The position numbers and the translations under genes are program-made. A model generated the notes under the pieces. The model made no database searches. It saw only the letters and a program-made list of their open reading frames with translations, and had not been told where the DNA came from. Positions 19,766 to 20,586 of a DNA stretch of 39,938 bases are shown here, piece after piece. Source of the stretch: a virus. The stretch's first letter is position 1, and every line of letters begins with the position of its first letter. The stretch spans positions 1 through 39,938 of IMG/VR virus record IMGVR_UViG_3300045988_020036, one strand, 5' to 3'.

Positions 19766-20155
19766 TTAATCCTCCACGCTCCGCAGGGCTTTTTCCAAAG
19801 CCTCTCTTGTGCGGCTGTCCGGGGCATCATCCATCATGTGCCGCAGTTTTTCTGCCATATCTTCCCTGGCATCAGCACGGCTATATCTGCCCATACTGTC
19901 CCGCTTTCGGCCACGGTAGCTGTTTACATTTCTGTAGTCATCCCGGTAGCCGTAGCCCATGCCGTACCAGTCACCAGCGTTGCTGTAGCTGCCGCCCATC
20001 ATGATCTTGTCCAGATTTTTCAGGGTATGTGTCAGCTTGTCCACGGTTTCCAGCGTTCCGGCAGACAGCTCACCACGTTCAGCGATTTCTTCCAGCTCCC
20101 GGCACAAAACCTCTCGCAGTTCTTCCAAATGTTTCATCTTATTCACCTCCATCAT
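19766..20155 (-). CDS. Cargo gene 6, helical protein with a central Gly/Tyr/Arg-rich low-complexity region
   Basis: KHLEELREVLCRELEEIAERGELSAGTLETVDKLTHTLKNL ... GGSYSNAGDWYGMGYGYRDDYRNVNSYRGRKRDSMGRYSR ... I recall this as a pattern recurring in Firmicutes prophages; function unknown. ATGA overlap with the upstream stop. Confidence 0.6.
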   Translation of the reverse strand: MMEVNKMKHLEELREVLCRELEEIAERGELSAGTLETVDKLTHTLKNLDKIMMGGSYSNAGDWYGMGYGYRDDYRNVNSYRGRKRDSMGRYSRADAREDMAEKLRHMMDDAPDSRTREALEKALRSVED

Positions 20156-20586
20156 GCCACACGCTCGATCATCAGGTTTGCATTGGCAACATCAATCGCT
20201 TCTGCGGAGATGTTGCGAACGGAAAGGGTGGCACAGCAGCCTCTAGGCACATCCACAAAAGCGGAAGTTACCACGTTAAATGCGGCATTTGCCACAGTTG
20301 GCGTTACCGTTGCTGTGGTGGTGGGGATAGCCTCGCCGCCCAAAGACAGGGCAACACTGATAGGCCCTACCGTGCCACCAGTCGGTATCGAAATGTTACC
20401 GAAAAACAGCACCTTATATCTTGCGATAGATGCACAGCCGTTGCAGGGGGATCGAAGCGTTACCAGGCCAGAGCCGTCCCGGTGAACAACATACCCCCGG
20501 TTGCACTTAACCGGCGTATCGGTAAAAAGCACGTTCTGCCCAGCCGCTACAGTCTGGGTAGCGTTTGCAGTAAGTTCAACCGCCAT
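20152..20586 (-). CDS. Cargo gene 5, BclA C-terminal-domain-like (C1q/TNF-like jelly-roll) protein with no collagen stalk
   Basis: 144 aa, beta-rich, ending ...VANANLMIERVA, with an internal RYKVLFFGNISIPTGGTVGPISVALSLGGEAIP. Both resemble the Bacillus exosporium BclA CTD as I recall it. No signal peptide. Confidence 0.55.
   Translation of the reverse strand: MAVELTANATQTVAAGQNVLFTDTPVKCNRGYVVHRDGSGLVTLRSPCNGCASIARYKVLFFGNISIPTGGTVGPISVALSLGGEAIPTTTATVTPTVANAAFNVVTSAFVDVPRGCCATLSVRNISAEAIDVANANLMIERVA

Follow-up and report, generated by a model that had tools for sequence, protein, structure and literature searches.

A stand-alone TNF/C1q-like protein with a predicted BclA-type fold, encoded in a conserved mobile cassette of gut phages

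What is the 144-aa protein encoded at 20152..20586 on the minus strand of the IMG/VR virus record IMGVR_UViG_3300045988_020036, and with which other proteins does it work? The stretch that we analysed, positions 1 to 39,938 of that record (39,938 nucleotides), is called the window here, and the protein in question the target. A reading made earlier from the sequence alone (the original prediction) held that the target resembles the C-terminal domain (CTD) of the Bacillus exosporium glycoprotein BclA, that it has a C1q/TNF-like fold without a collagen stalk, and that it is encoded in a moron cluster. We show by structure prediction and structure comparison that the modelled target is a stand-alone jelly-roll of the TNF/C1q superfold, with Bacillus spore-surface proteins as its nearest solved relatives. 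We also show that its gene belongs to a conserved cassette, which is an autonomous, co-inherited module moving between phages of gut Clostridia.

The structure of the target was modelled as a monomer with AlphaFold2, using a 31-sequence alignment. The model is all-beta, with ten strands, the first of which comprises residues 2-7 (mean predicted local distance difference test score, pLDDT, 87; predicted template modelling score, pTM, 0.82), in agreement with the beta-rich character proposed earlier. A Foldseek search of the Protein Data Bank (PDB) with this model gave 97 matches at E<=1e-3. The top match is the CTD of F-BclA from the tip fibrillum of the B. thuringiensis F-ENA (9h38; E 2e-7, template modelling (TM) score 0.72-0.76, root-mean-square deviation (rmsd) 2.9 A), followed by BxpB/ExsFA/ExsF (8d02, 7r1m, 7r5i and 9h3d; E ~1e-6, TM 0.63-0.71) and by the CTD of BclA itself (1wck, 3tyj, 2z5w and 2r6q; E 2-4e-5, TM 0.69-0.73); the Foldseek probability is 1.00 for all three groups. 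Later ranks are taken by 4-1BBL, EDA and C1QTNF5 (E 1e-5 to 1e-4), and then by phage tail knobs. The best BFVD matches, with TM of 0.8-0.89 and identity of <=34%, come from metagenome-assembled genomes (MAGs) of gut phages and are stand-alone proteins 130-145 aa long; two of the BFVD matches already carry the automated label "BclA protein" (examples in BFVD are A0A8S5U2A1, A0A8S5S925 and A0A8S5PWG2, from human-gut Caudoviricetes MAGs). The original prediction was to be given up if neither a profile nor a structural match to these folds appeared; structural matches were found, with the F-BclA CTD, BxpB/ExsFA and the BclA CTD first, and the C1q/TNF-like, BclA-CTD-like fold is upheld because the target model matches BclA-type structures.

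It could be argued that this likeness is only the generic similarity of beta-sandwiches, and that the target has an unrelated function, for example that of a monomeric binding protein. Such an explanation would fit the facts that the target structure is a predicted one, that its identity to the structural matches is only 13-20%, and that no significant sequence match exists in Pfam, NCBIfam or the PDB. However, the matches extend over the full length, with TM of 0.7-0.76 and Foldseek probability of 1.00, to many independent structures of TNF, C1q and BclA type among the 97 found; the model is confident; and the weak BclA_C matches in relatives and the strand pairing found by hhalign (see below) agree with a TNF-like domain. 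We therefore regard generic similarity as a very improbable explanation.

Direct family assignment by sequence was tried and discarded. A Pfam search with the target returned nothing at E<=1; among the families looked for, neither BclA_C (PF18573) nor C1q (PF00386), where the original prediction had expected a match, gave a significant hit with the target, and neither did TNF (PF00229). The NCBIfam search, in which a model of the exosporium leader was included, gave no match either, consistent with the earlier statement that the N-terminal exosporium-targeting peptide is absent. When phmmer with the target and hmmsearch with the family profile were run against all PDB sequences (8d02 and 7r1m included), no BxpB/ExsFA match was obtained at E<=10. 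We then considered a diverse sample of the family, 93 representatives with mean column identity of 33%. BclA_C is the family most frequently matched by these relatives in Pfam, yet it is matched by only three of the 93 (best E 1.8e-4); C1q and TNF are absent from the best 25 of the 28 Pfam families matched. A marginal result was obtained with hhalign for the family profile against the BclA CTD (probability 4%, E 0.01), and it was the same for a single-sequence and a 29-sequence BclA profile. In this alignment, ARYKVLF..NIA is paired with GFYKITVIANTA (ARYKVLF with GFYKITV), and ISLAI..GE with LTIQVNG.

The original prediction had singled out two stretches of the target as BclA-like. The internal stretch is borne out, as it pairs with BclA strands in the hhalign alignment. 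The C-terminal ending is not: it lies outside the alignment, and the terminal ...R-[VI]-A, which is ...ERVA in the target, is present in only about half of the diverse family members. The statement that BclA ends in I-I-E-K-V-A was accurate, as the CTD sequence (PDB 1wck, 2r6q) ends in ...IIIEKVA. Altogether, the filing of the target as a TNF/C1q-superfold protein, BclA-CTD/BxpB-like by its predicted structure, is supported; remote homology to BclA is plausible but unproven.

The positions that are conserved throughout the family are Q11, N64, G84, T95-P96 and N125, each at 92-99%. Cysteines are conserved as well: C117 and C118 at 84% each, C51 at 80% and C28 at 59%. The target has cysteines at positions 28, 48, 51, 117 and 118, and all of them are located within the fold, in loops.

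The open reading frame (ORF) found on the minus strand contains both of the strings on which the original prediction was based (RYKVLFFGNISIPTGGTVGPISVALSLGGEAIPTT and the ending ...VANANLMIERVA). The Shine-Dalgarno sequence AAGGAGGG is located 5 nt 5' of the ATG and constitutes a strong ribosome-binding site; the gap to the upstream gene is only 12 nt, and the stop codon shares ATGA with the start of the next gene. We found 1924 homologs at E<=1e-3, nearly all of them exactly 144 aa long and encoded on sequences of ~40-45 kb labelled Caudoviricetes. In a library of 1.8 billion proteins, the family comprises 741 clusters at 50% identity, nearly all of 130-160 aa. The target matches phrog_20016 over its full length (E 1.2e-47; residues 3-144 aligned to positions 2-141 of the 141-position profile), and the homolog from a phage of >100 kb (L085) matches the same profile at E 6e-57. 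The homologs, the clusters and the phrog_20016 match establish that the minus-strand gene is real. On the opposite strand, a 461-aa ORF (20029..21414, plus strand) runs antisense over the CysTM gene, introduced below, and the target gene; no homologs support it, and it probably arises only from the base composition of the coding strand.

The longer members of the family are not stalked forms. They are deletion chimeras, in which the N-terminus of a peptidase or of a Q/P/Y-rich (QPY) protein of the same cassette is joined to the TNF domain; thus, the stand-alone architecture is the family norm. Natural deletion variants are P0125, P0154 and P0177, as well as L080:9793-10348 and L064:9515-10435, some of them being in-frame fusions of the peptidase/QPY N-terminus to the TNF domain. 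As stated in the original prediction, the 144-aa protein contains no Gly-X-Y repeats. When all frames of the window were examined for runs of >=6 G-X-Y triplets, a single one was found (25206-25277, 8 triplets). It is inside the tail-fibre gene, so that the tail fibre was correctly named as the sole site of a collagen-like run; the tail-fibre protein shows no similarity to the target, in keeping with the earlier statement that its C-terminus is different.

The gene is part of a cassette with the following order: a sigma-70 region-4 (sigma-r4) helix-turn-helix (HTH) protein, a papain-like peptidase, the QPY protein, a small Q-rich protein, a Cys-rich protein (CysTM), the TNF-like protein (the target) and a G/Y/R-rich (GYR) protein. 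The cassette and its flanks in the window are as follows.

Ending at 24189, read along the minus strand: tape measure, Dit, Tal and tail fibre (tail fibre at 24189-25793)
23279-23956, read along the minus strand: M15 endolysin
22764-22970, read along the minus strand: Dp-1 holin
22519..22755, minus strand: sigma-70 region-4/GerE-like HTH protein, 78 aa, first gene of the cassette
22041..22430, minus strand: minimal papain-like Cys-His-Asp protein, 129 aa, phrog_3754
21637..22044, minus strand: QPY protein, N-terminus rich in Q/P/Y, conserved core (…WVxxExAAxA…LWDS…P.FY.K…), 135 aa, phrog_21718
21438..21656, minus strand: small Q-rich protein, 72 aa, 29% Gln, phrog_22984
21422..21451, minus strand: promoter-like site GTAACA-18-TATAAT with a TG extension, just 5' of the CysTM gene (a consensus match only)
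20599..21393, minus strand: CysTM, Cys-rich protein, 264 aa, phrog_16490
20152..20586, minus strand: target TNF-like protein, ATG start, 144 aa, phrog_20016
19766..20155, minus strand: G/Y/R-rich low-complexity protein with helical ends, 129 aa, phrog_28802, its start overlapping the target stop (ATGA)
19436..19762, minus strand: p108, 108 aa, without family assignment, kept in the 40-kb phage group, in phage Ceridwen and in L083
19204-19365, read along the minus strand: 53-aa protein
19009..19041, minus strand: strong terminator-like hairpin (14 bp stem and T run) at the end of the minus-strand operon, ahead of the convergent integrase gene
17847-18947: tyrosine integrase, convergent

Elsewhere in the window, a MuF-like minor capsid protein (38136-39527, minus strand) combines a Phage_Mu_F domain (E 3e-13) with a C-terminal Ntox50 bacterial toxin domain (E 4e-11); the virion may deliver this protein as a toxin cargo.

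The same gene order was found in an AT-rich Clostridia contig (L004), where the target homolog is 56% identical, and in the cultured Butyrivibrio phage Ceridwen (L005), where it is 46% identical (target homolog QHJ73769, CysTM homolog QHJ73768); the lemur-gut phages L007 and L008 have the same cassette. It was detected on 80 IMG/VR contigs, and synteny holds down to identities of 46-56% and across GC contents of ~30% to ~50%. Phages of >100 kb with ribonucleotide reductase (nrd) and dUTPase genes (L085, L089) carry it as well; in these, the QPY, small helical and GYR proteins were recognised by eye and by weak PHROG matches. Hidden Markov model scans placed CysTM directly upstream of the TNF-like gene in 80 of the 82 loci that have enough upstream sequence (median gap 13 nt). 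One of the remaining two, L080, is a deletion chimera; in the other, L064, TNF, GYR and p108 follow right after the holin, with no CysTM. The Cys-rich neighbour, for which the original prediction had suggested a co-occurrence check, is thus a real and conserved gene. In the same scans, the GYR gene is downstream of the target family gene in 72 of 81 loci, and 13 GenBank phage records contain the TNF-like and CysTM families together. MAG bin labels of the carriers are Lachnospiraceae, Oscillospiraceae or Clostridia; the host of Ceridwen, Butyrivibrio fibrisolvens, is not known to sporulate. For Ceridwen, only lytic growth was seen and the phage was judged virulent (PMC7372960).

The order of the cassette is constant, while its flanks vary: three holin families, an amidase or an M15 endolysin, and a serine or a tyrosine integrase are found next to it. 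The cassette is co-oriented with the late genes and is located at the end of the late operon; usually it comes directly behind the holin, as observed for at least five divergent lineages (the window, L004, Ceridwen, L089 and L092). Its place is different in three Dulem viruses: in Dulem virus 35 it lies between the MuF and the scaffold/major-capsid genes, in Dulem virus 36 it follows the receptor-binding protein, and in Dulem virus 39 it follows an integrase. As the order is kept across changing flanks and positions, and as the virulent-judged Ceridwen carries the cassette, it is not specifically a lysogenic-conversion cluster; the moron cluster of the original prediction is better described as a conserved syntenic cassette. 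In some carriers (L095:1-6174, L096, L097), a polyvalent protein of 3,200-3,800 aa (ART-PolyVal, LPD3) is encoded directly upstream of the lysis genes. Identity with a defence system was considered and rejected, since PADLOC analysis of nine proteins gave no match below E 0.005.

The positions of the cassette bear on its possible purposes. The TNF-like trimer, with CysTM as a stalk, might be a virion accessory, i.e., a capsid decoration, a knob of a head or neck fibre, or an auxiliary receptor- or glycan-binding protein. Phage fibres and spikes often bear trimeric knobs of TNF-like fold; the PDB matches of the target include tail proteins of cyanophages A-1(L) and A4 and the spike knob of phi812, those in BFVD include tail fibres and collagen-like proteins, and the L085 homolog has a weak tail-fibre match (phrog_27998, E 0.006). 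Co-orientation with the structural genes, the position between MuF and scaffold/major-capsid genes in Dulem virus 35 and that after the receptor-binding protein in Dulem virus 36 point in the same direction. Conversely, the cassette occurs in unrelated backbones (40-kb siphophages, nrd phages of >100 kb, and backbones with a 3,700-aa polyvalent protein) and in varied positions, including integrase-adjacent ones, and particle-specific parts are seldom transferred in this manner; the membrane-like hydrophobic segment of CysTM is also difficult to reconcile with a particle component. We consider a virion accessory unlikely, although it is the first in our ranking of purposes, ahead of a lysis-linked membrane complex and of host- or spore-surface conversion, which are weighed below.

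CysTM is conserved in its N-terminal 30 residues, which are followed in the family alignment (A4) by a hydrophobic segment with Gly/Trp flanks (GWGG..WWI....FGWGGNG). Next come a helical region that is rich in Q/N and contains an invariant CCC, the Pro-rich motif PxPAYVVPNP and, at the C-terminus, a GCGC tail. The search of the PDB with the CysTM profile returned only non-significant matches, dozens of them at E 0.3-2, mostly to influenza haemagglutinin HA2, plus coiled coils. We treat the HA2 likeness as compositional, reflecting a Gly/Trp-rich hydrophobic segment and a long coiled coil; the layout recalls that of class I fusion proteins and spanins and is no evidence of homology.

This outline invites the idea of a lysis-linked membrane complex, in which CysTM and the TNF-like protein would act at the membrane late in infection in a spanin-like, antiholin-like or envelope-disrupting manner. 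An N-terminal anchor, a helical domain and cysteines make CysTM i-spanin-like in outline, and the non-significant HA2-like matches reflect the same succession of a Gly/Trp-rich hydrophobic segment and a coiled coil; the holin directly precedes the cassette in at least five divergent lineages, and in L064 the TNF gene comes right after the holin. However, the hosts, as known from MAG bin labels and one cultured host, are Clostridia without a known outer membrane to fuse, the cassette is sometimes away from lysis genes, and the end of the late operon is a common insertion point for accessory genes. In addition, known lysis systems have no counterpart of the TNF-like trimer, the low-complexity proteins or the peptidase. 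A lysis-linked complex is, in our estimate, rather improbable.

The papain-like protein gave a model with pLDDT of 94, and its best and only meaningful fold match is Josephin-2 (probability 0.96, TM 0.47). C22, H102 and D113 are invariant, and so is a CPDC (CxxC) motif besides this triad; according to the model, the protein is a minimal papain-fold Cys-His-Asp enzyme. The idea that it is a transglutaminase was dropped, as the fold search gave a generic papain-like match and no transglutaminase. Since its homologs have a length of 126 aa, translation probably begins at Met4, which would place the listed GTG start three codons too far 5'. Homologs of this protein occur alone in Bacillus Tsamsa-like phages, in Geobacillus phage GBK2 and in Lak phages; the contexts in GBK2 and Tsamsa are uninformative. 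In the AT-rich phages of >100 kb, a HExxH protein of 106-109 aa is found at the cassette end (L085:11141-11461, L089:11166-11495), with weak matches to DUF2268, SprT-like and M78 families, and the papain-like gene was not found there. It seems that the cassette needs some peptidase, and no one particular type.

Other components vary as well. In L092:5716-6135 and L093:5597-5980 (bajarodcaudo virus 5 and Dulem virus 36), the slot of the TNF-like protein is occupied by a beta-rich protein that is unrelated to it (127-139 aa; GCGGC at the N-terminus, a CxC motif further inside) and for which we found no Pfam or PDB sequence match; the downstream gene is also different (phrog_17879). An Ena-like identity of this protein was considered and gained no sequence support from Pfam and PDB. 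The replacement suggests that the slot after CysTM is a swappable "head" position. In one lineage (L095:9743-9997, L096-L098), an extra 84-aa helical protein that ends in ...GCCCSMKQEG is encoded between CysTM and TNF, and its N-terminal helices resemble the N-terminal part of the GYR protein. Cysteine clusters recur as a mark of the cassette proteins.

At the head of the cassette, equivalents of the HTH protein are present in L001, L002, L004 and L092, and proteins that consist of sigma-70 region 4 only (78-119 aa) lead the cassette in divergent phages (22519-22755 in the window; L092:3611-3847; L004:2646-3005); that of L092 passes the curated cut-off of PF04545, with E 4e-6. Judging from these matches, the small sigma-r4 protein may be a dedicated regulator of the cassette. 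A GerE/sigma-r4-like regulator in this place is one of several features that would be expected if a prophage-expressed cassette built or modified an exosporium-like or spore-coat-like outer layer of the host, or blocked superinfection. All of the closest solved folds belong to proteins of the exosporium or of spore appendages, and the composition of the cassette mirrors spore-coat chemistry (Cys-rich, Gly/Tyr-rich and Gln-rich proteins and a papain-fold enzyme). Temperate members place the cassette between the lysis genes and the integrase, the classical site of lysogenic conversion; in addition, CysTM is preceded by a promoter-like site, and a strong terminator follows the cassette. This explanation is at odds with the carriers themselves: the only cultured one, Ceridwen, is lytic and judged virulent, and its paper mentions no host sporulation (PMC7372960); carriers of >100 kb have genes for nrd and dUTPase, and their retrieved flanks showed no integrase. 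Moreover, the many sequenced phages of Bacillus, C. difficile or C. perfringens yielded no homolog, and there is no exosporium leader, NCBIfam match or PADLOC match. Host- or spore-surface conversion is thus quite improbable and comes last among the three purposes.

The reading that we propose concerns the assembly itself. The TNF-like protein would be a trimeric knob or adaptor on CysTM, possibly attached via cysteines, in a multi-protein assembly made late in infection; in our judgement, this proposition could equally well turn out right or wrong. The TNF-like protein would be non-enzymatic and would form a trimer like its structural relatives, sitting on or capping CysTM, which would serve both as the anchor (membrane or hydrophobic) and as the helical stalk or scaffold. 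The two might be linked through cysteine clusters, by disulfides or by metal, with CC117-118, C51 and C28 on the TNF-like side and CCC and GCGC on the CysTM side. The Q-rich and G/Y/R-rich low-complexity proteins could be matrix or linker parts, one of which would be processed by the dedicated peptidase. This model parallels the stalk-less BxpB trimers that are proposed to be placed on a Cys-rich ExsY scaffold, and it does not imply membership in that family.

Several points weigh against the knob-on-CysTM arrangement. We infer the partnership with CysTM from adjacency and co-inheritance, and both are indirect. Sequence homology of the target to BclA or BxpB is not demonstrable by Pfam, PDB searches or hhalign. 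The hosts are strict anaerobes, in which disulfide formation is unfavourable; metal binding or some other role of the cysteines is therefore conceivable. One variant, L064, has TNF, GYR and p108 and does without CysTM, so that the need for CysTM is not absolute. The CysTM tail is unchanged in L092 and L093, where the partner is swapped; this, together with the absence of CysTM from L064, speaks against a highly specific fit between the tail and a cleft of the TNF-like protein. Finally, the target has no signal peptide, and to act outside the cell it would have to be released by lysis or exported in some other way. The assembly might serve in adhesion, in coating of the virion or of the envelope, or in a lysis-linked role.

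A bolder extension of the knob-on-CysTM arrangement is that the cassette builds a self-assembling proteinaceous structure, cross-linked covalently or by metal, i.e., a viral counterpart of the ExsY-BxpB-BclA system of the exosporium and spore coat. It would have a Cys-rich scaffold, TNF-like plugs or knobs, a Gln-rich and Gly/Tyr-rich matrix, and papain-fold processing or cross-linking. We regard this extension as improbable; if true, the structure might coat virions or the infected cell for gut persistence or adhesion.

The fold, the stalk-less form in Bacillus (BxpB/ExsFA), and the unannotated phage relatives with their PHROG in public data are already known. What is apparently undescribed is that the target family is a fixed part of a large mobile cassette of five to eight genes, widespread and conserved in phages of the human and animal gut, with its own sigma-like regulator, peptidase, CysTM and low-complexity proteins. 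Our literature search found no description of the conserved cassette or of the near-obligate pairing of the TNF-like protein with CysTM, and nothing specific on stand-alone BclA-like or C1q-like proteins of phages. The cassette is a concrete experimental target, and both Ceridwen and its Butyrivibrio host are culturable. Should the module build a cross-linked or adhesive structure, this would bear on the persistence and attachment of gut phages.

Among known systems, BxpB/ExsFA/ExsFB of Bacillus are close in form. They are stalk-less jelly-roll trimers of BclA-CTD-like structure in the basal layer of the exosporium; they dock the N-terminal peptide of BclA, and a linkage to the cysteine-rich ExsY/CotY scaffold has been proposed (PMC10470788). 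ExsF docks the leader of F-Anchor in clefts between protomers (PMC12357932). The original prediction regarded a free C1q-like trimer encoded in a moron cluster as unusual; the free form is not unusual in itself, given the stand-alone BxpB/ExsFA (PMC10470788) and the stand-alone phage proteins of this fold of 130-145 aa in BFVD. Like BxpB/ExsFA (~150-170 aa), the 144-aa target is predicted to be a stand-alone jelly-roll without a collagen stalk. BxpB works with the Cys-rich ExsY, with cysteines as the proposed link (PMC10470788), and the target has conserved cysteines and a gene that adjoins a Cys-rich gene. The cysteines are placed differently: those of BxpB are in a disordered N-terminal segment of 19 residues, whereas the target lacks a segment of this type, because its model starts at the strand 2-7 and cysteines 28, 48, 51, 117 and 118 are within the fold. 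BxpB docks the Pro-rich exosporium leaders of BclA or F-Anchor, and no such leader was found here with NCBIfam; the sequence of the target has no detectable homology to BxpB. BxpB is a chromosomal sporulation gene, whereas the target is phage-borne and its family is also found in a virulent-judged phage of a host that is not known to sporulate.

The CTD of BclA and F-BclA (PF18573; ~135 aa) is similar to the target in size and in the last strand (...I-E-[KR]-V-A), with rmsd of ~3 A. In BclA and F-BclA, however, this domain heads a long Gly-X-Y stalk with an N-terminal attachment motif, and the target has neither stalk nor leader; conversely, the conserved Cys clusters of the target family are absent from BclA. 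The "BclA protein" entries of BFVD and phrog_20016 have size, fold and habitat in common with the target. The same trimeric jelly-roll superfold is found in the TNF/C1q knobs of phage fibres and spikes, in eukaryotic TNF ligands and in C1q heads, where it is generally the distal binding head. Those knobs are covalently joined to a collagen, coiled-coil or beta-helix stalk, whereas the stalk of the target, if there is any, must come in trans.

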